A DNA stretch of 64,000 nt, from contig JAVFAS010000005.1 of NCBI GenBank assembly GCA_034002405.1, positions 2,092-66,091 of the forward strand, written 5' to 3'. The translations under genes were made by a program, and so were the position numbers. The notes beneath the pieces were generated by a model. That model ran no database searches. It had not been told where the DNA came from and was given only the letters and a program-made list of their open reading frames with translations. Shown here one piece after another: positions 28,376 through 42,950 of the stretch; positions within the stretch are counted from its first letter, which is position 1, and each line of letters opens with the position of its first letter. The stretch comes from Bacteroidota bacterium (GTDB lineage Bacteria > Bacteroidota > Ignavibacteria > SZUA-365).

Positions 28376-29398
28376 TCATATGGTACCGGCGCCACGACGA
28401 CGGAGAAGCGCGATGAATAATGGCGCACCGATCGCGGCCGTGAGCGCACCCACCGGAATTTCAACCGGTGACAAGAGGCTTCGGGCCAGAAGATCACAGA
28501 TTATCAGAAAGGTTGCACCGAGAAAAAACGAGAGCGGTACGAGCAGGCGATGGTCGGAGCCGACGAACAGGCGAATCACATGGGGCACGAGCAACCCGAT
28601 AAATCCGATGGTCCCCGCGACACTGACGACCGCCGCCGTCATGAGCGACGCGAGGATGTAGAGGAGTCCCTGTGTCCGACGAACGCCAAGCCCGAGATGC
28701 GATGCCGTCTCCTCGCCGAGTGCGAGGATGTTCATCCGCCCGGCATAGAGCATCAGCCACAGCGAGAGGACGGCAACAATAGGGACAAGCACCGCAACTT
28801 CCGCCATGCCCGTGCTGCCAAGATACCCGACCAGCCAGAATAACGCCGTACGAACAGGGCGATCCATGGTCGATACGAGAGCGAGGATGATCGCGGACAG
28901 AAAGGCACCGATCATCACGCCTGTCAGAAGCAGTGTGTTGCGCTCCAGCGAGGCGCGGAGGCCGAGACCATAGACCACGACGACAACGGCAAGCGCGGTG
29001 AGAAAGGAGAGAAGTACCTGCGCGGGAAAATACCACGCGGAGAGACCGGTGGCGATGGCCGTCAATGCACCGACCGCCGCGCCACCCGAGACACCCAAGA
29101 TGTACGGATCGGCAAGTACGTTTCGCAGCAAGACTTGAAATACCACGCCGGCTACCGCCAATCCGCCACCGACAAAAAGCGCGGTGAGAATTCGTGGAAT
29201 CCTGATGTCGAACAGAACCGCCCGGACCGTGCCGTACTCCGACTCACCGCTGTTGAATATGGCGGAGAACATTTCCGCGTAGCTCAAATCGAAGGAACCA
29301 ATGCGAAGGGAGAGCATGGCGCTCGCAATCATCAGCAACGCGGCAAACAGACTGAGCCGGCGGACGCGAAGGGGTGTTGCTGAACGTGCGTGCTTCAT
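28376..29398 (-). CDS. FecCD-family ABC transporter permease (iron-siderophore/cobalamin type)
   Basis: 340 aa with about 9 TM helices. The segment RIPRILTALFVGGGLAVAGVVFQVLLRNVLADPYILGVSGGAAVGA is the BtuC/FecCD signature. No ATPase or binding-protein gene is adjacent. Confidence 0.82.
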   Translation of the reverse strand: MKHARSATPLRVRRLSLFAALLMIASAMLSLRIGSFDLSYAEMFSAIFNSGESEYGTVRAVLFDIRIPRILTALFVGGGLAVAGVVFQVLLRNVLADPYILGVSGGAAVGALTAIATGLSAWYFPAQVLLSFLTALAVVVVVYGLGLRASLERNTLLLTGVMIGAFLSAIILALVSTMDRPVRTALFWLVGYLGSTGMAEVAVLVPIVAVLSLWLMLYAGRMNILALGEETASHLGLGVRRTQGLLYILASLMTAAVVSVAGTIGFIGLLVPHVIRLFVGSDHRLLVPLSFFLGATFLIICDLLARSLLSPVEIPVGALTAAIGAPLFIALLRRRGAGTI

Positions 29399-29407
29399 CG
29401 GCTCCCG

Positions 29408-30424
29408 TCATGCATCACTGTCGTCGGGAGAGACCGGGTCCGCGCCCATGATCATGTCCCACATCATATCCTTCAAAGCGGACAATCCATCACCGCTGAC
29501 GGACGAAAAGGCAGCAACGGGAACGTCCATCGTTCGCTGCAATTCCACGATTCTCTCCCGGTCGGCGGGGGCCGCCGCATCGGTTTTCGAAATTGCGACA
29601 AACCACGGCTTCTTCTTCAGTTCGTCGCTATAGGAAGAAAGTTCATTGCGGAGCACCCGCAGATCTTCCTCGTAGTCGCCGCTGAAGCTCTCGATGAGAA
29701 TCGCAAGCACACGGGTTCGCTCGACATGGCGGAGAAACTGAATGCCGAGACCTTTGCCTTCATGCGCTCCCTCGATCAGTCCAGGCAAATCCGCGACGGT
29801 AAAACTGTCGTACTCACGATAGCGCACAATACCGAGGTTTGGCTCGAGCGTGGTAAATGGATAATCCGCGATTTTGGGGCGCGCCGCGGAGATGGTGGAA
29901 ATAAGGGTGGATTTCCCTGCATTCGGAAATCCGACCAGTCCGACGTCGGCGATGAGCTTGAGCTCGAGCAGAAGTTGACGTTCCACCGAGGGACGACCGC
30001 TCTCCGCCGTTCGTGGGGTCTGGTGCGTCGCGGTGGCGAACTCCGCATTTCCGCGACCGCCGCGACCACCGATCGCGGCGCGATATTGCTGACCTGGAGT
30101 CACGAGGTCCGCGAGCAGCTGCGAGGTTTCCGCATCGCGTACGACCGTACCACAGGGCACCTGAATGAGAGCGTCGTCTCCGGAGCGGCCTGTCCGCAGC
30201 GATTTCTGGCCTTTCGCCCCGTTCTCCGCGGCATAGGTGTGCTTGTAGCGCTGGTCGAGGAGCGTATGCAACTGCGGATTCGCGACAAGGATGATGTCGC
30301 CTCCTTTTCCGCCATTGCCGCCGTCGGGACCACCTTTGGGAACGAATTTTTCGCGGCGAAAGCTGACACAGCCATCCCCGCCTTTTCCGGATTGCACGGA
30401 AATGGTTACTTGGTCAACGAACAC
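29408..30424 (-). CDS. obg: GTPase Obg/CgtA
   Basis: Obg fold with Gly-rich N-terminus FVDQVTISVQSGKGGDGCVSFRREKFVPKGGPDGGNGGKGGDI, plus G-domain motifs GFPNAGKST and DLPGLIEGA. Confidence 0.92.
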   Translation of the reverse strand: MFVDQVTISVQSGKGGDGCVSFRREKFVPKGGPDGGNGGKGGDIILVANPQLHTLLDQRYKHTYAAENGAKGQKSLRTGRSGDDALIQVPCGTVVRDAETSQLLADLVTPGQQYRAAIGGRGGRGNAEFATATHQTPRTAESGRPSVERQLLLELKLIADVGLVGFPNAGKSTLISTISAARPKIADYPFTTLEPNLGIVRYREYDSFTVADLPGLIEGAHEGKGLGIQFLRHVERTRVLAILIESFSGDYEEDLRVLRNELSSYSDELKKKPWFVAISKTDAAAPADRERIVELQRTMDVPVAAFSSVSGDGLSALKDMMWDMIMGADPVSPDDSDA

Positions 30425-30430
30425 GGCGAG

Positions 30431-32653
30431 TTACTTCCTGTTTGCGTAGCGTTTGTAGATGTCGTCGGTGAATTTCACCGCGAGACGCGAGTACATATCC
30501 ACGTCGAATTTGATGAACAGCTCGTCGATGTATTCGGAAGCCTGACGCCAGGACGGCTTTCCATTCAGCACCTGGAGCGCGTGTGCAAATGCATCCTCGT
30601 TCTTTTGAAAAAGCTTGCGGACGTATTTTTTCTTATCCGAATCGGGAAGCAACTCACGCAAGTCGCCATATTCCTGGATGACTTTATCCGTGGCGGGAGA
30701 CAAATCCTCTTCCTCTTCCATCGCGTCGATCAACGCAGTGCGCGAAGATATCGACGCTTCCCTCTCGAACGCCGTACCCTCCCGCTGTCCCGACCGACCG
30801 GAATTCTGGTCACCGAAATCCTCGTCGAGCTCCAGATCGCGGAGGAGATCCTCCGCGGGTTCCAGCTCACTGGTCCGGCCGAGAGAAAGCCCGTCTGGCG
30901 TGGATGCATCCGGGAGTGGCTCCATGTCCGTATCGATTTCTTCGATGTCCAGCGCTTCGGCTTCCTTCTCCCAGTCAATATCCATATCCAACACGTCATC
31001 CGATTGATCGGGATCGTCCGCCTGATCATTTGTGTCCGTACGATCCGGCGGCGTTCCGGCAGTCGATGCCGATGCACCGGCATCGCTGTCTTGCGCGGCC
31101 GCTTCCACGTCAGCGAAATCCAAACCGTCATCGGAGATGCCGGCATCGAATGCGGTGGTGCGATACGGATCGCTGCCGATATCGTCCTGCTCGAGAGAGA
31201 GTTCGATGGCCTCGATTTCATCGAGGGAAATATCGGGAATCACATCCTTTGTCTGAAGAAACTGCGCGGTCGGACGGGGCTCCTCCTCTCCGAGCACGAT
31301 ATCGGGAAGTTCGTCGATATCGCTCAGGGGCGGATTCTCCAACTCCGAGGTAGGGGCTTCATCGCTGGGCATGGAAACCAATTGCTCTTCCAGCGCGAGA
31401 ATGCTTTCCGCCGTCAGATCGGAAACCGCGTCGTCGTCTTCACTGTCATCCGCGACGGATGCTTCCGCATCGAGATGAAGAGCGTCGGACGCTTCGGCTT
31501 CCTCCGAATCTTCAAGTGCACTCACGGATGCATCGACAGCATCGTCCTCATCGAGGACGAGATCGTCGAGCGCCACGGCATCATCGATCTCGTATTCGAG
31601 ATGGCTGCGGATGTTGTCATGCTCCTGCATGATCACCCCCTGTTCCTCCTCGGAGATAATGAAATCGAGCGCATCCTGTTCATGGCCGAGATCGCCATGG
31701 TGCATACCCGATTGTTCGTATTCCGGCATGTCCGGTACACTGAAATCCTGCGCCGCGGTCGCCGAGCGCTCGGGCTTCATGCCGCCTTTGTGGCCAAGCT
31801 GTTCGTTCACGATGGTAGATATGTCCATTCCGAGAGTATAATCCTCCTCACCAATGATCATGACCAGGTCGTGCAACGTCAGACGCTCGCGCACCTTCTT
31901 TTCCTGGTCAAGCCGTTCGACGACGGAGGAAAGGTTCTTGTCGTCAAAGAAAATCGAAAGCGCTTCGATCGGTGCGAGCAGTGTCTCCGCGGATGACGCG
32001 AGATTGAACAGCTCATAGATGGGTTCGGTCAGATGCGCCGTCTTGCGGCTGTCAAAACTGCGCACCACCTCGTGATCGATGCGCTCGAGCAACTCGGTGA
32101 ATTTCCGGACATGAATGACGGTCATTCCCTTCTGCGTGAAATACTCCCGGAGGATGACCTGGTAGTATTCGTAGTACCAGAACACCCGAAGCGCATCGAG
32201 AATGTCGTCGGTCGACGCGTGCTCGCGGTCGGCGAACAGATATTTCACCAGCGTCCACTGCGGCCGGCACACGTAATTAAAGAGCAGTTTGACGTTTTTT
32301 TCCAGGGCGGCGAGGTAATCCGGCGCATCGAAGACCGCGTGCTCGCGGGCGCGATCGCTGATGCGATCGAACAAGGCGAGTATTTCCTCATCGTCGTAGC
32401 GAAACCGCGAGGAATCGAGGAGACGCTCCTTTTCAGCAGCCACGAGGATGTTGATATCCGCGTCGAACATGCGGTGCAGCGCGGGCGGAATCGACGAGGC
32501 GAAGATCTGCCGCGACGTGATGGTGTCGGCGTCGCCAATGGTTTCCTTCCGCAGGAAGGCGATGGTGTCATCGATGTTCCGTTCGAACATGTCGGGATCC
32601 ACGATTGTGTTTGGAAAAACGGTCCGCCTTCTCTCAGACGGGAGATCCGGCAT
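30431..32653 (-). CDS. hypothetical protein with conserved N- and C-terminal domains flanking a ~350-aa Asp/Glu-rich low-complexity region
   Basis: 740 aa. Residues ~290-640 are dominated by D, E, S, A and L (for example DDAVDASVSALEDSEEAEASDALHLDAEASVADDSEDDDAVSDL). The N-terminal ~280 aa and C-terminal ~90 aa are non-repetitive and look globular. No motif I can name. 7-nt gap to obg. Confidence 0.55.
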   Translation of the reverse strand: MPDLPSERRRTVFPNTIVDPDMFERNIDDTIAFLRKETIGDADTITSRQIFASSIPPALHRMFDADINILVAAEKERLLDSSRFRYDDEEILALFDRISDRAREHAVFDAPDYLAALEKNVKLLFNYVCRPQWTLVKYLFADREHASTDDILDALRVFWYYEYYQVILREYFTQKGMTVIHVRKFTELLERIDHEVVRSFDSRKTAHLTEPIYELFNLASSAETLLAPIEALSIFFDDKNLSSVVERLDQEKKVRERLTLHDLVMIIGEEDYTLGMDISTIVNEQLGHKGGMKPERSATAAQDFSVPDMPEYEQSGMHHGDLGHEQDALDFIISEEEQGVIMQEHDNIRSHLEYEIDDAVALDDLVLDEDDAVDASVSALEDSEEAEASDALHLDAEASVADDSEDDDAVSDLTAESILALEEQLVSMPSDEAPTSELENPPLSDIDELPDIVLGEEEPRPTAQFLQTKDVIPDISLDEIEAIELSLEQDDIGSDPYRTTAFDAGISDDGLDFADVEAAAQDSDAGASASTAGTPPDRTDTNDQADDPDQSDDVLDMDIDWEKEAEALDIEEIDTDMEPLPDASTPDGLSLGRTSELEPAEDLLRDLELDEDFGDQNSGRSGQREGTAFEREASISSRTALIDAMEEEEDLSPATDKVIQEYGDLRELLPDSDKKKYVRKLFQKNEDAFAHALQVLNGKPSWRQASEYIDELFIKFDVDMYSRLAVKFTDDIYKRYANRK

Positions 32654-32659
32654 CGGTGG

Positions 32660-33484
32660 TCAGATTCCCCACGTATCCGGATAGAGTATGTCGGCATTCA
32701 CGGGACGCGCCCCAATCCGGGCGATGGTGGGAAGCATGCGCTTGAAGCGCTGCCGCACGATGCGCGCGCGCACGGCCGCGATGAATTCCGGCTCGAAGCC
32801 CAGCGCGGCCAAACCGGCGTCATCCACCCGGCCATCGATCATGGAGACAAGCAGTGCATCCACACGATCGTAGGTGAAACCCAGCTCGTCCTCATCGGTC
32901 TGGCCAGACCAGAGATCCGCGCTGGGAGGTTTTTGGATAATCGCATCCGGTATTCCGAGCCAGGCGGAGAGTTGGCGCACCTGGGTTTTGTACAGATCGC
33001 CGAGAGGATTGATCGCGCAGGCGGCGTCGCCAAACAGCGTACTGTACCCCAGCAATGCTTCGGTCTTGTTTCCGGTGCCGACGACGAGACCGTGATCGCG
33101 TGCCGAACGGTCGTAGAGCACGATCATGCGCGTACGCGCCATGATGTTGCCGCGGCGCAGCCGGTTCATCGTCGGATCACCGGCAATGAGCGGGTCCACC
33201 ACAGGGGTGATATCCACGAGGTCGGGTTCGACACCCATCCATCCGGCGACGAGGCGCGCATGCTCGACACTCTCGGCACTGCTGTCACGATGCGGCATCA
33301 TGATGCACGAGACCTGTCGCGGACCCAGCGCGCGAACACAGAGCGTCGCCGTCAGTGCTGAATCGATACCGCCAGACAATCCTACGATCGCCCGGGAAAA
33401 CCCCGCGGTGTCGAATTCCGCTGTAATGAATCCGCACAGCAGATCGACCGTGGCTGATGCGTCAAGTTTCAGTTGAGGTAACAT
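32660..33484 (-). CDS. nadE: NH3-dependent NAD+ synthetase
   Basis: PP-loop SGGIDS (AIVGLSGGIDSALTA) plus the GTGNKTEALLGYSTLFGD motif. Start taken at the internal Met MLPQLKLD. Confidence 0.85.
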   Translation of the reverse strand: MLPQLKLDASATVDLLCGFITAEFDTAGFSRAIVGLSGGIDSALTATLCVRALGPRQVSCIMMPHRDSSAESVEHARLVAGWMGVEPDLVDITPVVDPLIAGDPTMNRLRRGNIMARTRMIVLYDRSARDHGLVVGTGNKTEALLGYSTLFGDAACAINPLGDLYKTQVRQLSAWLGIPDAIIQKPPSADLWSGQTDEDELGFTYDRVDALLVSMIDGRVDDAGLAALGFEPEFIAAVRARIVRQRFKRMLPTIARIGARPVNADILYPDTWGI

Positions 33485-33634
33485 GCACCTGAATACGATA
33501 TTGTTGGAACTTACGAAACCCGACACCGCAAATCAATGCGTGGCGGCGTTCGTTGCGCGTTGCAGCGCGATTTTCTGAAACTGTCGCGGGGCGTTTTCGT
33601 ACACCACTCCTTATCTGGACCTTGGAGAACCGCC

Positions 33635-34510
33635 ATGTCCGCGAAACATCCCCTTGTCATCCCAATTCTCGTCATCCTTGTCGCCGGCGTGCTCAACGCG
33701 CAGGACTCCCCCGTGCGTCATGTTGCCCTGGGCGAGGCCACCGAGGTTGTCGCGAAAATCAATGGGGGCTACGGCACGGTGCATCTGCGACGCGGCGACG
33801 GGCCGATGCTCCTGAGCGTGCGCGAAAGCAACGCAAAGAACCGTGAAGCGCCACCGGAGATTCGCGTCGACTACCGCGTGGAGGACGGGATCGGTTTTCT
33901 GACCGTTGATATGGGAAACGATGGACGCGATGAGATGAACCTCCTCTCCTGCCTGTTGAATGGCCGCGGCGAACGGACGTGGGATGTGACGCTCGCGGGA
34001 GGAATTCCCATTCGACTGGACATGACCATGGGCGCGGGCACGGCGACGGTAGACCTGACCGATATTCACCTGCGTGCGTTTCATCTCGATGCGGGCGCGG
34101 GTACGGTGCTGCTCCACGCCGATCGTCCGAACGCGGAGGATATCGGACATGTGACAATCTCCGCGGGCGTGGGTGCGCTCCGTGCCGAACGCCTTGGAAA
34201 CCTGCGCTTCAACGAACTCGCATTCGAAGGGGGAATCGGCGAGTACCGGATCGACTGCAGTGGCGCACTTCCCGACAACGCGAAAGTCGTGTCCGATGTC
34301 GGCGTCGGGACTCTGACGATCGTCCTGCCACGGGACGTGGGCGCGAAGGCGATCACGAACGATAACTGGCTGAGCAGTCGGAAAATGTACGGGTTCATCC
34401 AGAAAAATGACGTCACCTACTGCACACCCGATTATCAGCGCACCCAACGGCGCGTCCTGCTCGACGTGCGGAGCGGTCTGGGTTCTGTCGTCGTGCGTCG
34501 GATGAAATAA
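33635..34510 (+). CDS. secreted repeat protein (putative adhesin / DUF4097-LiaF-C-terminal-like beta-helix)
   Basis: Signal peptide MSAKHPLVIPILVILVAGVLNAQ. It has repeated V/I-x-L-x-x-G-x-G strands (GGIPIRLDMTMGAGTATVDLTDIHL, LDAGAGTVLLHAD, VTISAGVGAL, SDVGVGTLTIVLP). Functional assignment is weak. Confidence 0.45.
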   Translation: MSAKHPLVIPILVILVAGVLNAQDSPVRHVALGEATEVVAKINGGYGTVHLRRGDGPMLLSVRESNAKNREAPPEIRVDYRVEDGIGFLTVDMGNDGRDEMNLLSCLLNGRGERTWDVTLAGGIPIRLDMTMGAGTATVDLTDIHLRAFHLDAGAGTVLLHADRPNAEDIGHVTISAGVGALRAERLGNLRFNELAFEGGIGEYRIDCSGALPDNAKVVSDVGVGTLTIVLPRDVGAKAITNDNWLSSRKMYGFIQKNDVTYCTPDYQRTQRRVLLDVRSGLGSVVVRRMK

Positions 34511-34647
34511 TGCTCTTCGGATAACCGGGTCTGGTTATCCATAACACAGACTGTCCCGGATTCCCTCCTGTCATGCGTGGTCCGCGACGCCAGTTGTGGC
34601 GAGCGCCGCGGGCATGACGCGGAGGGGCTCCGGGACAGTCCGTTTCG

Positions 34648-34733
34648 TACTCGAGGCCGGGGTCGAACCGGCACGGGTTTTAAAGCCCACTGGATTTTGA
34701 GTCCAGCGCGTCTGCCAATTCCGCCACTCGAGC
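34648..34733 (-). tRNA. tRNA-Leu (anticodon CAA), type II with long variable arm
   Basis: The minus-strand read is GCTCGAGTGGCGGAATTGGCAGACGCGCTGGACTCAAAATCCAGTGGGCTTTAAAACCCGTGCCGGTTCGACCCCGGCCTCGAGTA. It shows a Leu-type D-arm, an anticodon loop CTCAAAA, a long variable stem-loop, and a T-loop TTCGACC. Position 1:72 would be a G:U pair. CCA is not encoded. Confidence 0.75.
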
Positions 34734-34780: not shown

Positions 34781-37700
34781 TCATTTCATCAGCAACATCC
34801 GTTGGTGACGCACGATCGTGGGAGTCTGCAGCACGGCGAGATACACGCCCGACGGCAGTCCGCTCCCGTTGAAATTCCGTACATGTGTTCCAGGTTCGAG
34901 CCAGCCATCCGCCAGCGTCACCACCTCGCGTCCGAGCGCGTCGACGATGCGCAAGGATGTCTGTCCGGCTTCGATCAGGACGAACTCGAGGGTTGTCGCG
35001 GGATTGAACGGGTTGGGCCGGTTGGGTTTCAGCTGCACGGCGACGCTGCCGTCAAATAAACGTGTGCCACCGTCCCGGCAGATTCCGAGCAAGGTGAACC
35101 GTCCGTCCTGTGTGTTGATCGTGAGATCACCGCCGATGGCAGCGACATTCTCGATGCGGAGATCGGTGTATTCCGCGTCCCCGAGCGTGACCATCATCGG
35201 GACACGCAGTGCCACGTCCTCGGCATCCGTCAGCAGCGGAATCGTCAGGTCTATGCTGCGCTCGTTGCCGGTAATACTTCCCTGCTCGCCGCCGAGCGGA
35301 ACGAGCAAACTGCTGCGATAGCGTAACGTCGCGCGAATACCGGTCGCGCCAAACAGCGCGATGTTGCGCCCGTTCCGCAATCGCAGCGGGATTTCAATCT
35401 GCTCACCTGGTTCGGCGCTGAGCGTGTCGACCACGAGTTCCACCACCGCGCTCCCGCGGATTCCATGCACACGTAGGAATTGCGGGGAACATGACGGACC
35501 GTGATCGAGCGGCATCGACACGTCGAATTCCTCATCGATCCCGGGATCATCGAATTGCACACGCAGATCGACCGACGAGCCCGGCGTCAGATTGACCGGA
35601 AGACCACCGATGACACGGAACGGTGGAATATCCGTCGCCGAGGAAATCGTGACCGCCGTGCTGCCGGAATTCGTCACCCGGACCATGCGCACGACGGGCA
35701 GATCTTCCGCGCGTTGGAGACCAAAATCCGCCGCGGCAACCGTGAGTCCGACACTGTCCCGTGTCCCGCGGAGCAGCAGATCATGTGTCATGCCACAGCG
35801 ATCAATGGCGATCCGCAGATTCCCCGCATGTGTGCCGGGGGCCGATGGTGCGAAACGAACATGCGCCTCCAGCTGCGCGCCAGCCGCGAGAAACACGGGC
35901 GGTACCGGGGAGAGAAGAAGGAAGGACGGGTCTTGCGAGGTGATTTGGGTGACCGTGTAATCCACCTCGCCGTCATTCCGAATGATGACGGTGGAATCGG
36001 CGAATTCACCGAAACAATGGAGACGGGGAAATTCTTCCAGCGTGGATACGCTGAGATCGACGCGCATGGCACGGGCGGACAGTGTCACCTGCGCCTCGAT
36101 GCCGCATCCGGCTTCATCCGCCGCAAGACGAATGGTTCCGCCCAGACTTCCTGACGTGGCATGCGTCACACGAAGCCCGACCGTGAGCGTCGCGCCCGGC
36201 GGCACCGTTCGTGGCCACAGTGATGGCGCGGGGGACTGTATCACGAACGCGGGATTATCGATGACCGGTATGGCGAAAGTCAGCGGCACCGTACCGGTGT
36301 TCTCGATGTCGAATGTGGCATCGGCGAAATCCGATTCGCAGAGAATCACATCCGGAAAGGCGATACTTGCCGTCGAGACTCGCATCTCCGCCACATCGAC
36401 GTCGATGGCATATGCGATACTGAAGGGACCCGGGGCGGGCGTGTTGCTTTCCAGCAGCAGGGTATCGACGATGCGTCCCCGCTCGCTTCCCTGCCGCGTG
36501 AAACGCACGATGAAATCATGACGCATGCCCGGATCGATCGAGATGGGAAACGCCGTGGGTTCGACAAGCACGAAACCCCGCGTCGAGGCGAAGCGGGCGT
36601 TCGTGATGTACAAGAGCCCGTCACCCACATTCGAGACGGAAAGTGTGTCCAGCGCATTGTCGTCGCAGACAAGACCTGGCAACTGCCGGGCGTTCTCCGC
36701 GAGGAGCTCCGGCGTAGTGCGCGAGATGAAAATATTCGCCGCGGCCTGGGACATCACGAACACCGGCGACGCGACATACGGGTCCGACGACGGCGTGGAC
36801 ACCTGTTGCAGGGCGACGAAATAATAGACATTGTCTTCCGCCGGGAGATCGATATCAAAGGTCCAGCTGTCGCTGTATCCACGCACCGTTCCGAGCGATG
36901 TCCATGGCATGCGGTCGGATTTGAGGTAGAGCTGAATGTCCGCGCCGTTGCCCGTGCCGCTGATGGTGAACTGTCGGCGTACGAACGTCGTCGTATCGGT
37001 GGAGGGTCCGTGGAACATGGTTTCTTCAGTCGGAATCGCATTGCTGAACCACATCATCGGACCGTCCATGCGGATGCGTCCGGCACCGCCACGCGGCCCC
37101 ACGCCAATGCCGCCTTCGGCACGGATTTTCCAGATTCCCGAGGCGAGCTTGCTCTCGAGACTCACGGCGCCACCGGAGCCGGAGCCGCCGTCGCCACTGG
37201 CGCCGTCCGATCCGCCCGCCCCGTTACTGGTGAACAATTGACCCTCAAGCCGCGGGGCGAACAATCGCAGCGCGCCGCCGCCGCCGCCACCGTCACCCGA
37301 ACAGGAGAATGCGAGCTGTGGATTGCCACTCGCCCCACCCGATCCGCCCGCGAGCGGAATGACACTCTCATTTCCATGTGGTTGTCCGCCATTCCCATTC
37401 TGGGACGACGTGCCCGCCGTGGCGTATCCACCGGCACCGCCGGCCTGCTGCTGCTGCTGACCGCTGCCGCCACCATGACCACCCGGGGGATTGCACCCGC
37501 CGCCGTCGCCACAGCCGTTGCCGGAACTTCCGAACGGATGCCCGGTACCGCCGGCCGACGCTTCGTATGCCGGGGCATCTCCGCCCGGAACACCGTTGAG
37601 ACTGCCGCCGGTATTTCCGATGAAGGTACCGGATCCCGCACCGGGATTCCGGTATTCATCACTGCCGAAGGGGTTTCCCGCACGATTGCGTCCACCCCGA

Positions 37701-38470
37701 CCGCCTCCGGTAAAACCATCTCCTCCATCCGCGCCGCTTCCGCTCCAGTCGCAGAAATTCCCGCCACCGCCGCCGCCGCCCGGACCGCCGTGTTTTGCAT
37801 TCGCATCAACCGAAACCTGCGTGTTGTTCCCGGTCCGTACCGGACCTTTCGAAAGGATGACCACCGGGAGAAAACCTTGATTTCCCGGTGTGGCCGGGTC
37901 GCAATCCGCCGTCGAAATGTCGTAGCTGTCGCCGAGCAGCGCGAGACTGTCGATGATGATTGCCCCGCGCGGAGACCGCAGCGCCCACACTCCCCCGCTC
38001 CCGATCGTGCCGCCGGCATTCGTGACTATCGCCGGTTGGGGACGCACGATGTAGAACGTGACCGAGTTTTGTGTCACGCCGTTGTATCGCACCTGCAGCG
38101 GAATGATGAATTCGGGCGCGATGCCCTGCCAGCTGTCGCTGTTGGGCTGCTGATCAGGATGCACGAAGATCTGCGTCGAAATCATACGACCATTCCAGGA
38201 CACCACGAGCGGACCGATGCCGATTTTTGTGGTGTCCGCCGCGTTGACGCATTCAACACGGACCGCATCACCGGGATTGTTCATATAGAAACCATCCGGA
38301 CCGTAATTTCCGATTTGGTCGTGCGGCCCCAGGATTTCAACATACGTGTTCATCCCCGGAGTCCCGAGGTCCGGGATCATGTAGGAAATGGCCTGGGCAC
38401 GAACATCCATCGAAGGAATGAGCAATGCCGCCAGCAGTATCCACTCCGCGATTCGTCGGGCTTGTTTCAT
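34781..38470 (-). CDS. large secreted T9SS cargo protein with Gly-rich region and multiple Ig-like (ASH/CARDB-like) domains
   Basis: Signal peptide MKQARRIAEWILLAALLIPSMDVRAQA. There is a ~230-aa Gly/Ser/Asp/Asn-rich tract (GGPGGGGGGGNF...GGSGGASGNPQ). Several N/T-x-G-based Ig-like repeats follow (IENTGTVPLTF, IIRNDGEVDYTV, VRVTNSGSTAVTI). The C-terminal sorting domain is RPNPFNPATTLEFVL...LPSGVYLAVLQTPTIVRHQRMLLMK. Confidence 0.75.
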   Translation of the reverse strand: MKQARRIAEWILLAALLIPSMDVRAQAISYMIPDLGTPGMNTYVEILGPHDQIGNYGPDGFYMNNPGDAVRVECVNAADTTKIGIGPLVVSWNGRMISTQIFVHPDQQPNSDSWQGIAPEFIIPLQVRYNGVTQNSVTFYIVRPQPAIVTNAGGTIGSGGVWALRSPRGAIIIDSLALLGDSYDISTADCDPATPGNQGFLPVVILSKGPVRTGNNTQVSVDANAKHGGPGGGGGGGNFCDWSGSGADGGDGFTGGGRGGRNRAGNPFGSDEYRNPGAGSGTFIGNTGGSLNGVPGGDAPAYEASAGGTGHPFGSSGNGCGDGGGCNPPGGHGGGSGQQQQQAGGAGGYATAGTSSQNGNGGQPHGNESVIPLAGGSGGASGNPQLAFSCSGDGGGGGGALRLFAPRLEGQLFTSNGAGGSDGASGDGGSGSGGAVSLESKLASGIWKIRAEGGIGVGPRGGAGRIRMDGPMMWFSNAIPTEETMFHGPSTDTTTFVRRQFTISGTGNGADIQLYLKSDRMPWTSLGTVRGYSDSWTFDIDLPAEDNVYYFVALQQVSTPSSDPYVASPVFVMSQAAANIFISRTTPELLAENARQLPGLVCDDNALDTLSVSNVGDGLLYITNARFASTRGFVLVEPTAFPISIDPGMRHDFIVRFTRQGSERGRIVDTLLLESNTPAPGPFSIAYAIDVDVAEMRVSTASIAFPDVILCESDFADATFDIENTGTVPLTFAIPVIDNPAFVIQSPAPSLWPRTVPPGATLTVGLRVTHATSGSLGGTIRLAADEAGCGIEAQVTLSARAMRVDLSVSTLEEFPRLHCFGEFADSTVIIRNDGEVDYTVTQITSQDPSFLLLSPVPPVFLAAGAQLEAHVRFAPSAPGTHAGNLRIAIDRCGMTHDLLLRGTRDSVGLTVAAADFGLQRAEDLPVVRMVRVTNSGSTAVTISSATDIPPFRVIGGLPVNLTPGSSVDLRVQFDDPGIDEEFDVSMPLDHGPSCSPQFLRVHGIRGSAVVELVVDTLSAEPGEQIEIPLRLRNGRNIALFGATGIRATLRYRSSLLVPLGGEQGSITGNERSIDLTIPLLTDAEDVALRVPMMVTLGDAEYTDLRIENVAAIGGDLTINTQDGRFTLLGICRDGGTRLFDGSVAVQLKPNRPNPFNPATTLEFVLIEAGQTSLRIVDALGREVVTLADGWLEPGTHVRNFNGSGLPSGVYLAVLQTPTIVRHQRMLLMK

Positions 38471-38637: not shown

Positions 38638-40818
38638 TCAGATGTCCGAATCCTCGTCGAGGAGAATGCGCATCACCTGTTGGGCGGCCCGGGAGATGAT
38701 CGTTCCGGGTCCGAATACGGCGACGGCGCCATGCTGATAGAGGAAATCATAATCCTGAACGGGAATGACACCCCCGACCACCACGAGAATATCGTCGCGG
38801 CCGATCTTCCGCAGTTCCTTGACCAGTGACGGAACCAACGTCTTGTGCCCTGCCGCGAGACTGCTGACACCGATCACATGCACGTCGTTTTCCGCAGCCT
38901 GCCGTGCGGCTTCCTGCGGGGTCTGGAACAACGGCCCGATATCGACATCGAAGCCAAGATCGGCAAAAGCGGTGGAGATGACCTTGGCACCGCGATCGTG
39001 GCCATCCTGTCCGAGCTTGGCGATCATGATGCGAGGACGGCGTCCTTCCTGCTGTGCGAAGCGGTCGGTCATATTCTTCGCCGCGATGAAATCACTGTCC
39101 TCGCCTGCTTCGCTGCTGTAGACGCCGGAGATGGAACGGATCACCGCCTGATGCCGGCCGAACACTTCTTCCATCGCCGCGGACATCTCGCCCAGCGTGG
39201 CGCGTTTCCGCGCGGCATCGACACAGGCTTCGAGCAGGTTTGCATCACCGCGTGCCGCGACGGTGATGGCCCCGAGCGCATCGCGCACCGCGGATTCATC
39301 GCGTTCCGCACGCAGATCCGCCAGTCGTTTCATCTGCGCCGCGAGCACCGCGCTGTTATCAACCTCGAGAATGTCGATCGGATCCTCTTTTTCCAGCCGA
39401 AGCTTGTTGACACCCACGATGGTGTCCTTCCCCGAATCGATCCGCGCCTGCTTGCGCGCCGCGGCTTCCTCGATGCGCATTTTCGGCAGTCCCGTCTCGA
39501 TCGCCTTGGTCATGCCGCCGAGCTCTTCCACTTCCTGAATCAGTTCCCACCCGCGATGGGCCAGTTGATGGGTAAGCGTTTCGACGTAGAACGAACCACC
39601 CCAGGGATCGATCGCACGACAGATGTTGCTTTCGTCCTGAATCAGCAGCTGCGTGTTGCGTGCGATGCGCGCGGAAAAATCCGTCGGCAGCGCGATGGCT
39701 TCGTCCAGGGCATTCGTGTGCAAGGATTGCGTGTGGCCCTGCGCCGACGCCATCGCCTCGATGCAGGTCCGTGCGACATTGTTGAACGGATCCTGTTCGG
39801 TCAGACTCCACCCCGATGTCTGGCTGTGGGTGCGCAGGGACATCGACTTCGGATTTTTTGGATCAAACTGCCGGATCATCTTCGCCCAGAGCATGCGCGC
39901 GGCGCGCATTTTGGCGATCTCCATGAAGAAATTCATTCCGATCGCCCAGAAGAACGAGAGGCGCGGCGCGAAGGCATCGATATCGAGTCCGGCCGCGATC
40001 CCGGCACGGACGTATTCGAGTCCGTCGGCAAGCGTGTAGGCCATTTCGATGTCGGCCGTGGCGCCCGCTTCCTGCATGTGATATCCGGAAATCGAGATCG
40101 AATTGAATTTCGGCATGTTTCGCGCCGTGAATGCGATGATGTCGGAAACGATCCGCATCGACGGTGCCGGTGGATAGATGTAGGTATTGCGGACCATGAA
40201 CTCCTTGAGAATGTCGTTCTGGATGGTCCCGCTGAGTTGTTCCATCGCCACCCCCTGCTCCTCGGCCGCGACGATATAGAGCGCCATGATCGGAAGCACG
40301 GCGCCATTCATGGTCATCGATACCGACATCTTGTCGAGCGGGATGCGGTCAAAAAGGATTCGCATGTCCAGAATAGAATCAATCGCCACGCCGGCTTTCC
40401 CCACATCGCCGACTACTCTGGGATTGTCCGAATCATAGCCACGATGGGTGGCGAGATCGAACGCGATGCTCAAACCCTTTTGTCCCGCCGCGAGATTGCG
40501 GCGATAAAAGGCGTTCGACTCCTCGGCGGTGGAAAATCCCGCGTACTGTCGCACGGTCCAGGGTCGCGTGACATACATGCTGCTGTATGGTCCGCGCAGG
40601 AACGGTGGCATGCCGGCGACGAAATCAAGATGTTCGAGACCGGCAAGATCCTCCCGCGTGTAGAGAGGACGAACGGGAATCTGTTCGGGAGTCTGCCAGA
40701 TCAGCGCGTCGGGGTCTTTTCCCCGCGACTCCGCGAGCGCGATCTTCTTCCACTCTTCCATCGTCGATGCCGGCCATCCAGGCGTATTCCAGGTCCCCTG
40801 CGTAAAATCCGGTTTCAT
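38638..40818 (-). CDS. mutB: methylmalonyl-CoA mutase large (catalytic) subunit
   Basis: The ~727-aa product carries the N-terminal MCM TIM-barrel signatures ([47 protein letters not shown]) and a C-terminal B12-binding domain ([23 protein letters not shown]). Start taken at MKPDFTQ, which gives a 4-nt overlap with mutA. Confidence 0.9.
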
Positions 40819-42950
40819 GCTTTCACCTCGCTGGTTTCCGTGATGATGCCGAGACGTCGCAGCACATCCGCGAGTGTCGCGCCCACATCTGATTTCACAT
40901 GGATGAACAAATCGACTCCCGCCTGCGTGAGGATGTCGACGCTTTCCTTCGGATACCCGGCGACGACCACGATCGCGTGACAACCTGCCGCGCGCAGTGC
41001 TTCGAGCATGCCCGGGACCATCACCGGATAGCTCTCATCATCGCTACAGGCAACGATCACGTCGGCATTTGCCGCGATCGCCGCTGCCGCCGCTGCATCG
41101 GGTGTGTCGAATCCGTCATTGTCGATGATCTCCATTCCCGCGGTCCCGAAGAAACCGGAGGAGAACGTCGCGCGCGCGCGACGCCAGAATCCCGGTCCGA
41201 ATGTCGCGAGAAACACACGCGGTCGATGCGCGGCGGCACTCACCGCATCGCGAAGTCGCTCGAAATCCTCCGCCGCGCGAAAGGGTGTGAGGGGTCGCAC
41301 GATCGGAACATCGGCGCCACCGTTGTGGAGCACGTCGTTGACTTCGGCAAGGGTGAGTCCCTCCTGAAGCACGGCTGCCATCGCGGCGACGAGATTGCCG
41401 GTGCCGCTCTCGAACACCGAGCGGAGCGACTGGGAAAGCACGGCGGCGTCACAGGTCCGTGTCGCGAGATGCGTCCGACGCGACTCCTCCACCCGCTCCC
41501 TGACCGCCGCTGCATCGGGAATTCCGTTATTCAGCGGTTTTTCTCCGAGATTCGGATACTGGTTGCTTCCCACGATGACATCGCGGCGACGGGAAATGTT
41601 CGCCCGTTTCTCGGCGGCCGTACGCGCGATGCTGTCCTGAATGAATCCGCTCGATGCCGCGGCGACATATCCACCCCGCGCTTCGATTTCCTGGAACGTT
41701 TCCCAGGCGTGTGCGACGAGGGCGTGTGTCAGCGATTCGACATAGTAGGATCCGGCCGCGGGGTCCGTGACGTGTCCGAGCCGGGATTCCTCGCGGAGAA
41801 TGACCTGCAGATTGCGTGCGATGCGTTTTGAAAAATCGCCTGGCGTGGATGCGATCTCGTCGAAGGGCGCGGTGTACATCGAATCGGTTCCGCCGATCAC
41901 CGCGGCCATGGCTTCGATGGTCGATCGCAGCATGTTGACGTAGGGATCGTACTTCGTCTGATGCCAGAGGGAAGTGCGCGTATACATGCGCATTTTCCGT
42001 GCATCTCCGTCCTTCACGCCGAACGCCGTGGTCACGCGCGACCAAAGCATGCGTGCCGCACGCAGTTTCGCGATTTCCATGAAAAAGCTCATGCCGACCG
42101 GAATATCGAAGCGCATGCGACGCGCGACCGCGTCGGCGGATAATCCCATATCCGTCAACCGGTTCAGATATTCCACGCCGGAGGCCAGCATGCAGGCAAG
42201 TTCCAGTGTCGCGCTGGCACCTGCGTCATGATAACAATCGCCGCACACCGAAATCACGGTGGTCGGCATTGCCCGCTGATCGACGTAACTCACTGCGTCA
42301 TGCATGAGCCGGAAGGTCGTCGAAAGCGAGTACGGCAGGGTGCCCGTGCTGATCAGATGGGCCAGGGGATTGAACGCAACATGTGACAGACTGCGCTCCG
42401 CCACCACGGCCATGGCGAGGAAAACCGGCGACGACAAGCCTGCCTGGATGTCCATGGCAATGCCGGGTTGAATGCGTTCGGATATTCGTTGAAAATCCGG
42501 ATAGTGCTGCACGGCGGTCCCACCCACGCCGACCGTTTTCGCGGAAGCATCACCGCTACCGCGGGCGAGCATCGCCGCATGATCCATGCGAAGCACCGCA
42601 CCATCCTGACCCTGCCGGCGCGCGGACACGATTTCCTCGGCCGCGGCCTCCGGCAGGATCGCACTTGTCGTCTGGGCGATGACCCAGGGATGTGCTGCAT
42701 TGCCGAGTGCACGTGTTCCGCGCACGTACGGCTCGAATCCCGGGAGCGTGTCGATCTGCGGCAGCCCCTCGATATCGTCGCGGAAGTTCATTGGCTCGAC
42801 GGGGAAACCTTCATAAGGGTTCCATATCAGCTTTTCAAAATCGGCGCCTTTCAGATCGGCGGAAACCCGTTCTTTCCATTGTGCTTTTGTCGGTGGAGAA
42901 AACTCTGAAAAGAGCAGGTCTTCTCCTCCTGGCGTTCCAGTGTCATTCAT
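40815..42950 (-). CDS. mutA: methylmalonyl-CoA mutase small subunit
   Basis: 711 aa with the MCM-like fold throughout but lacking the canonical B12 DxHxxG region. It sits immediately upstream of the large subunit and overlaps it, as in characterised mutAB operons. Confidence 0.82.

Follow-up and report, generated by a model that had tools for sequence, protein, structure and literature searches.

An open reading frame (ORF) on the minus strand of a 64-kb stretch of DNA from a member of the Ignavibacteria (Bacteroidota bacterium; contig JAVFAS010000005.1 of assembly GCA_034002405.1, positions 2,092 to 66,091; hereafter, the window) encodes an uncharacterised protein, here called X, whose gene directly precedes that of the ribosome-assembly GTPase Obg in every context examined and which belongs to a large, new protein family. 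The ORF lies at 30431..32653 in window positions, which are used below. X consists of two conserved folded domains joined by a long, disordered, and strongly acidic linker. It is proposed, as a serious though tentative possibility, that X functions as an Obg-linked adaptor or regulator, the folded domains serving to dock the protein and the polyanionic linker with its short motifs serving as a tether.

The genes on which this proposal rests are arranged as follows:

29408..30424, minus strand: obg, encoding a short-form Obg GTPase of 338 amino acids (aa) without a C-terminal OCT/TGS domain (Pfam GTP1_OBG, 6e-61; NCBIfam ObgE equivalogs)
30425..30430, minus strand: X-obg spacer of 6 nucleotides (nt; CTCGCC), from the X stop codon TAA to the obg start codon GTG; related loci have similar close spacing
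30431..32590, minus strand: gene for X, in all likelihood read from Met22 of the 740-aa ORF (719 aa and a stop codon)
32660..33526, minus strand: nadE (NAD+ synthase), which precedes X in this clade alone and does not belong to the conserved unit

An earlier note on this DNA had described the gene for X as tightly linked to obg and as lying 7 nt downstream of nadE. The linkage to obg proved stronger than claimed. In each of the 17 close loci that show both genes, X and obg share a strand and X comes directly before obg, and the distance between the X stop and the obg start is near constant among the clade loci. Likewise, X immediately precedes obg in 9/9 distant relatives (~22-30% identity), where the two genes overlap by 14 nt at one extreme and lie 89 nt apart at the other. 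The gene upstream of X changes: a ~1200-aa secreted tetratricopeptide repeat (TPR) protein is encoded there in five of them, a divergently oriented peptidase S13 in two, and, in one each, an extracytoplasmic function (ECF) sigma module and a RadA-like gene. Because the adjacency of X and obg is kept in all nine while their upstream neighbour is exchanged, the conserved unit is, as judged from gene order, X-obg, and nadE is incidental to it. Of the nadE-X-obg arrangement pointed out earlier, nadE is thus retained within the clade and X-obg everywhere examined, but nadE has been replaced by other genes in every distant context. Comparison of these loci indicates that X and obg are co-inherited; the two are probably co-translated, and both co-transcription and translational coupling seem plausible.

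Gene order in the block nadE, X, obg, fecCD ... yidC is kept in full across the 19 loci of the clade, wherever the contig is long enough. Five loci with the syntenic block (L004, L011, L014, L015, and L016) are publicly labelled 'uncultured Chromatiales/Ectothiorhodospiraceae', which is probably a taxonomic mislabel of metagenome-assembled genomes (MAGs). In relatives of the Ignavibacteriales type, a TPR-X-obg string is found (L020 2420-6001, L021 2379-5999, L023 2364-5987, and L025 1324-5001); the TPR protein gene and X are separated by 0-50 nt, or occasionally overlap by 1 nt, and signal-peptide-like segments were seen at the N-terminus of three of four translated copies. No homologue of this TPR protein is encoded within the window. 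The Obg proteins of X-bearing loci are 326-355 aa long, every one of them lacking any C-terminal domain, and the Obg-fold N-domain of the Obg encoded in the window is basic (isoelectric point, 9.3).

Gene start, folded domains, and family

The full ORF would encode 740 aa, including 181 Asp/Glu and 67 Lys/Arg residues, for a computed net charge of -114. However, the MFER start of X, at Met22 of the ORF (32590), is found in the aligned homologues with the N-terminus present (21/22 in the alignment, one member being N-terminally truncated, while the gene call of another extends further upstream). Across the wider family, most of the 150 matches listed align to the N-domain profile from their very first residue. 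Given that homologues begin with MFER and that the 63 nt of ORF upstream hold a hairpin and a frame-independent motif, the real start is, on this sequence evidence, almost certainly Met22, and the protein ~719 aa in length with a net charge of -113. The spacer between the nadE stop and X is therefore 69 nt, and the 7-nt gap stated earlier is an artefact that stems from an in-frame ATG lying further upstream. The two elements recognised in this spacer are:

32624..32641, minus strand: terminator-like GC hairpin followed by a T-run, within the spurious N-terminal extension of the ORF
32597..32610, minus strand: conserved non-coding motif ACACAATCGTGGAT (consensus ACACAAYCGTGGAY), 14 nt, ending 6 nt before the true X start

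A comparable hairpin and T-run were seen in the related loci L003, L004, and L010, which suggests that transcription of nadE is terminated or attenuated ahead of X-obg, although only ~25 nt are then left for any promoter. No match to a sigma-70-type promoter was found around the operon, such a consensus being uninformative for this phylum. Of 18 related loci, at least 11 carry the ACACAAYCGTGGAY motif, and the rest of the window shows no enrichment for it. Since it is kept in differing frames relative to the ATG (in three of these loci), it acts at the level of DNA or RNA rather than as a peptide; a leader, a translation signal, or an operator is conceivable, and a coding N-terminal extension was ruled out on the same ground.

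The protein encoded from Met22 is cytoplasmic and divides into three parts:

31790..32590, minus strand: N-terminal folded domain (N-domain), aa 22-288; all-helical with six short strands, and near-invariant NY-x-CRPQWTL, YEYY, and FFDDK motifs
30692..31789, minus strand: disordered polyacidic linker, aa 289-654; net charge -98; predicted local distance difference test (pLDDT) below 50 outside short helices
30434..30691, minus strand: C-terminal folded helical domain (C-domain), aa 655-740; motifs GDL, KKKY-x-KKLF, LNGK-x-SWR-x-ASEYIDELF, and DVDMYSR-x-AVKFTDDIYKRY

That the termini are conserved domains, as had been supposed, was borne out by both alignment and modelling. AlphaFold2, supplied with a 23-sequence alignment, folded the N-domain (aa 20-288) with a pLDDT of ~90 and the C-domain (aa 655-737) with one of ~92; modelled by itself, the N-domain reached a pLDDT of 86 and a predicted template modelling score of 0.79. 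In a 42-sequence clade alignment, mean column identity was 0.68 for the N-domain, 0.75 for the C-domain, and 0.35 for the linker, and the two domains are accordingly under strong constraint.

A word-indexed search returned 48 close homologues, all labelled 'hypothetical', and an exhaustive hidden Markov model (HMM) search with the N-domain profile identified 1173 representatives of 50% identity clusters at E<=1e-3, 812 of them at E<=1e-10. The named sources are all uncultured, being MAGs labelled Ignavibacteria, Ignavibacteriales, Candidatus Kapabacteria, or Bacteroidota. Both the N- and the C-domain were present in 167/194 family members fetched, and later in 296/354, such that almost all full-length members combine the same two domains. 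X itself carries the family signature, comprising the N-domain motifs listed above, the C-domain pattern W-x-x-AS...D-x-x-S...F, and obg directly downstream. In P0039 (860 aa), the N-domain and linker are joined to an unrelated C-terminus of ~240 aa that replaces the family C-domain. A chimera produced by assembly or gene calling is the probable cause, the alternative being a rare fusion.

The gene is thus real and, as had been stated, uncharacterised. Scans against Pfam, NCBIfam, and PADLOC gave no consistent match for X or for 59 diverse relatives, no DFRP domain being recognised by Pfam in any of them, and sequence-profile searches of the PDB with four alignments returned nothing meaningful. 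Neither trigger factor nor an RNase E scaffold, two families named earlier as ones that the terminal domains might match, nor any other known scaffold associated with ribosomes or RNA, was matched by sequence or by fold. Literature searches on Obg together with the Ignavibacteria, and on acidic disordered partners of Obg, turned up no account of the X family. By these comparisons, it is new at the family level: no relative could be detected by sequence, and none is close to it in fold.

The modelled N-domain comprises six helix, short strand, helix units, which can be read as three EF-hand-like helix-loop-helix pairs. One alternative makes X a high-capacity buffer or sensor of divalent cations or polyamines: the EF-hand-like domains would serve as the sensor, and Mg2+, Ca2+, or polyamines would be bound by the polyacidic linker, perhaps in connection with ribosome homeostasis. 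Proteins with EF-hand pairs (calmodulin-like proteins, myosin light chains, and the Dcn1 PONY domain) do align, but over 60-120 of ~265 residues, and this provides no evidence of homology. Unlike those proteins, X lacks calcium-binding loops: the canonical EF-hand loop pattern, PROSITE PS00018, does not occur in X and was matched just once among 355 family proteins, no EF-hand was matched in Pfam at E<=0.1 to 1, and the loops of the N-domain are short, their residues not being conserved acidic ligands. Moreover, the very short linkers of many family members would offer negligible charge capacity. A role in buffering or sensing is consequently very improbable. Comparisons with hhalign gave no indication of internal duplication among the sub-lobes of the N-domain, nor of any relationship between the N- and C-domains, all probabilities being below 20%.

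X might alternatively be a nucleoid- or chromosome-associated factor, such as a kleisin-like bridge, with a flexible linker between its N- and C-domains, or a DNA mimic acting on DNA-binding proteins. No Pfam match to the kleisin ScpA was obtained, however, and such match to ScpA as was seen was no better than those to dozens of unrelated small helical domains. The C-domain is predicted to be all-helical, without the strands of a winged helix, and the conserved neighbour of X is obg, not smc or scpB. Of the explanations considered, this is the hardest to credit.

The acidic linker

The long, acidic, disordered core noted earlier is authentic. Over its 366 aa, the linker contains 17% Asp, 14% Glu, 11% Ala, and 9% Ser, Asp+Glu amounting to 31% and Lys+Arg to 4%, and most of it is formed by residues with a pLDDT below 50 (311 in total), interrupted by short helices of moderate confidence (AlphaFold2). 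Its 113 acidic residues represent a marked excess over the ~12.5% Asp+Glu of neighbouring proteins (binomial p=2e-20). Because the remaining proteins of the window are of ordinary composition (~12% Asp+Glu), this acidity is specific to X, and a generally acidic, salt-adapted proteome was ruled out on that basis. Disordered regions of 350 aa with a net charge near -100 are rare in bacteria. Five motifs were located in the linker with the clade alignment:

31733..31780, minus strand: linker motif 1, MKPERSATAAQDFSVP, aa 292-307; conserved island; clade pattern MKPER..TA.QDF.VP
31631..31696, minus strand: linker motif 2, GDLGHEQDALDFIISEEEQGVI, aa 320-341; conserved island; clade pattern DLG.E..LDFIISEEE.GV
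31223..31246, minus strand: linker motif 3, DVIPDISL, aa 470-477; adjoins moderate-confidence predicted helices at aa 463-489; clade pattern IPDISL
30950..30985, minus strand: linker motif 4, MDIDWEKEAEAL, aa 557-568; predicted short helix, pLDDT ~64; clade pattern IDWEKEAE
30821..30868, minus strand: linker motif 5, ELEPAEDLLRDLELDE, aa 596-611; conserved island; clade pattern L.PAE.LL..L.LD

The coincidence of such islands with helices predicted at moderate confidence is typical of binding motifs. A distant subfamily (e.g., P0098, P0117, P0124, and P0130) possesses a linker motif of its own, N[IP]xLSLT[FY][AS]G[LM] (alignment columns ~415-440), which is absent from the clade of the window; the linker motifs are therefore lineage-specific.

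Homologues of the clade, down to 35% identity, have linkers with 24-41% Asp+Glu and 1-6% Lys+Arg, and those of the close homologues from the word-indexed search are ~170-420 aa long. A relative recovered by the profile search, P0052 (1018 aa), has a 667-aa linker that is richer in Pro/Ala/Ser/Thr and contains 24% Asp+Glu; a product of ~1020 aa encoded at L015 1666-4731 is likewise an extreme variant. Linkers of comparable length to those of the clade are found in Kapabacteria members. Across the family as a whole (uniform boundaries, n=296), linker length extends from ~27 to 694 aa with a median of 116, many members having linkers of ~27-100 aa. The shortest of these suggest that the N- and C-domains may pack together. 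The linker is net negative in 98% of these proteins, and the longer linkers are both more acidic and poorer in basic residues (Spearman 0.63 and -0.63, respectively). The possibility raised earlier, that the acidic region might be a strain-specific expansion absent from orthologues, thus holds only in part: short linkers are indeed common in the family, but an acidic linker of ~170-670 aa is kept throughout the clade. The long polyacidic core has thus arisen at the level of the clade, by expansion of a variable anionic spacer; it is neither strain-specific nor universal, and because so many members carry only ~27-100 aa at this position, it is an elaboration and does not form the core of the family's function.

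Such variability, a ~25-fold range in length with short forms in many lineages, together with a mean identity of only 0.35, is what would be expected if the long core had no function of its own and were simply a tolerated low-complexity expansion, arising by neutral drift or serving as an entropic spacer. Against this stand the narrow limits within which composition has been held in the clade, the presence of at least five conserved motif islands, and the systematic scaling of charge with length across the family; furthermore, a repeat check found no DNA tandem repeats inside the linker coding region that would point to recent slippage. A functionless core is, on this evidence, improbable.

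Possible roles of X beside Obg

Should X function as an adaptor or regulator of Obg, its two folded domains would dock it to Obg, to the pre-50S substrate of Obg, or to both. The linker, which in the clade is ~365 aa long with a charge near -100 and at least five conserved, short, acidic-hydrophobic motifs, would then constitute a nucleic-acid-like, motif-bearing tether. It might occupy basic rRNA-binding surfaces, either those of the basic Obg-fold domain or those of free ribosomal proteins, or alternatively it might recruit additional partners. In either case, X would tune the timing with which Obg engages the ribosome.

Two precedents lend this proposal support. The acidic, disordered C-terminal domain of Escherichia coli ObgE binds to the basic DNA groove of YbiB, in competition with DNA (PMC10123104). 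As with X, a strongly negative disordered polypeptide is thereby tied to Obg, in the case of X through gene linkage, and with the Obg of X-bearing genomes being devoid of a C-terminal domain, X could, by analogy, supply the acidic segment in trans. The ObgE tail, however, comprises ~50 aa within Obg itself, whereas the X linker is part of a separate protein with two folded domains; the two are unrelated in sequence, and the short-linker members of the X family possess no comparable polyanion. A second precedent is provided by the DRG GTPases of the Obg family, which have dedicated DFRP partners, viz. Rbg2-Gir2/DFRP2 and Rbg1-Tma46/DFRP1 (PMC8629797, PMC3064805). Gir2/DFRP2 is highly acidic and largely disordered (PMC3064805), and it resembles X in having an N-terminal folded domain, with a C-terminal region that binds the GTPase, and in being the dedicated partner of an Obg-superfamily GTPase. 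Nevertheless, X has no DFRP match, its pairing with Obg is deduced from synteny, and the GTPase concerned is a bona fide bacterial Obg rather than a DRG, the DRG-DFRP pairs being eukaryotic or archaeal. The name Obg itself derives from the spo0B-obg operon of Bacillus subtilis (PMC8629797), in which a lineage-specific gene likewise lies directly upstream of obg and is co-transcribed with it. Spo0B differs in being a phosphorelay phosphotransferase of another fold, with no acidic disordered region and no homology to X.

Disordered Asp/Glu-rich segments of 15-90 aa that mimic nucleic acids and occupy basic nucleic-acid-binding surfaces are also familiar from other bacterial proteins, including the C-terminal tail of the RNA polymerase delta subunit, region 1.1 of sigma-70, and the acidic tips of Hfq and SSB. 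The acidic-hydrophobic tips of such segments resemble the X motifs DF-x-VP, IDWEKE, and ELL-xx-LDLDD, although the X linker is 4-20 times longer and is situated between two folded domains.

Several observations weigh against a role for X at Obg. No similarity of sequence or fold was detected between X and DFRP or any ribosome-assembly factor. The C-terminal tail of Obg was considered as a conserved docking site and rejected, the tails in X-bearing loci being variable and without a conserved docking feature. Synteny demonstrates co-inheritance and not binding, and fecCD, which often follows obg in the clade and in most contexts, raises the prospect that the block persists merely as an operon. 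Lastly, the core function must be able to do without the polyanion, since many family members have linkers of only ~27-60 aa.

The same retention of fecCD, which is functionally unrelated to Obg, is consistent with a different explanation in which X serves as a general scaffold or hub, or forms condensates, and organises another cytoplasmic process by a logic like that of PopZ; its place in an operon with obg would then be of the incidental kind that is common among unrelated housekeeping genes. The architecture of X, in which a disordered acidic stretch separates a folded domain from a small helical C-domain, would suit such a function and recalls PopZ, where an acidic disordered linker lies between an interaction region and a helical C-terminal domain; the several conserved short motifs suggest multiple partners, and the length of the linker varies freely. 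But PopZ is an alphaproteobacterial protein unlinked to obg, the N-domain of X is large and folded, and no Pfam match was found to the PopZ C-terminal oligomerisation domain or to any scaffold family, nor was there any sequence match to PopZ. The persistence of X-obg adjacency in all nine deep comparisons despite upstream reshuffling, with tight or overlapping spacing, is also stronger than ordinary operon drift would produce. A scaffold divorced from Obg is thus rather unlikely, albeit an alternative that retains some weight.

An Obg-linked adaptor or regulator remains the proposal adopted here. It can be taken further: X might be the first dedicated bacterial co-factor of Obg, DFRP-like in function yet evolutionarily unrelated, with a linker that acts as an rRNA/DNA mimic to gate the access of Obg to the 50S subunit or to chaperone basic ribosomal proteins. 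This extension is speculative and, for the present, doubtful.

Surrounding genes and significance

The remaining features of the neighbourhood are the following:

18773..22333, minus strand: smc; a GH2-like glycosidase gene also lies within 18773-28186 on this strand
25584..28186, minus strand: yidC-yidD-rnpA
28376..29398, minus strand: fecCD permease
33536..34510, plus strand: LiaF-like gene, between nadE and the gene for the 1229-aa Gly-rich protein
34647..34733, minus strand: tRNA-Leu(CAA), after the gene for the 1229-aa Gly-rich protein
34781..38470, minus strand: 1229-aa protein containing Ig-like domains and a long low-complexity region rich in Gly; syntenic upstream of nadE in the clade
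38638..42950, minus strand: two methylmalonyl-CoA mutase subunit genes with overlapping ORFs

Obg is essential and universal, but its regulators and partners are still poorly defined, and no classical GTPase-activating protein or guanine nucleotide exchange factor is known for the Obg family (PMC8629797). Adjacent to obg in every context examined and belonging to a family of more than 1000 clusters at 50% identity, X presents a concrete candidate for such a partner, although its mechanism may yet prove to be a variant of known polyanionic-tail biology. With the same two domains joined by a linker that varies ~25-fold in length and yet stays negative, the family offers a natural system for the evolution and function of polyanionic linkers; if the proposed role is true, its natural variants, whose linkers span ~27 to 694 aa, would amount to a linker-length series already at hand.

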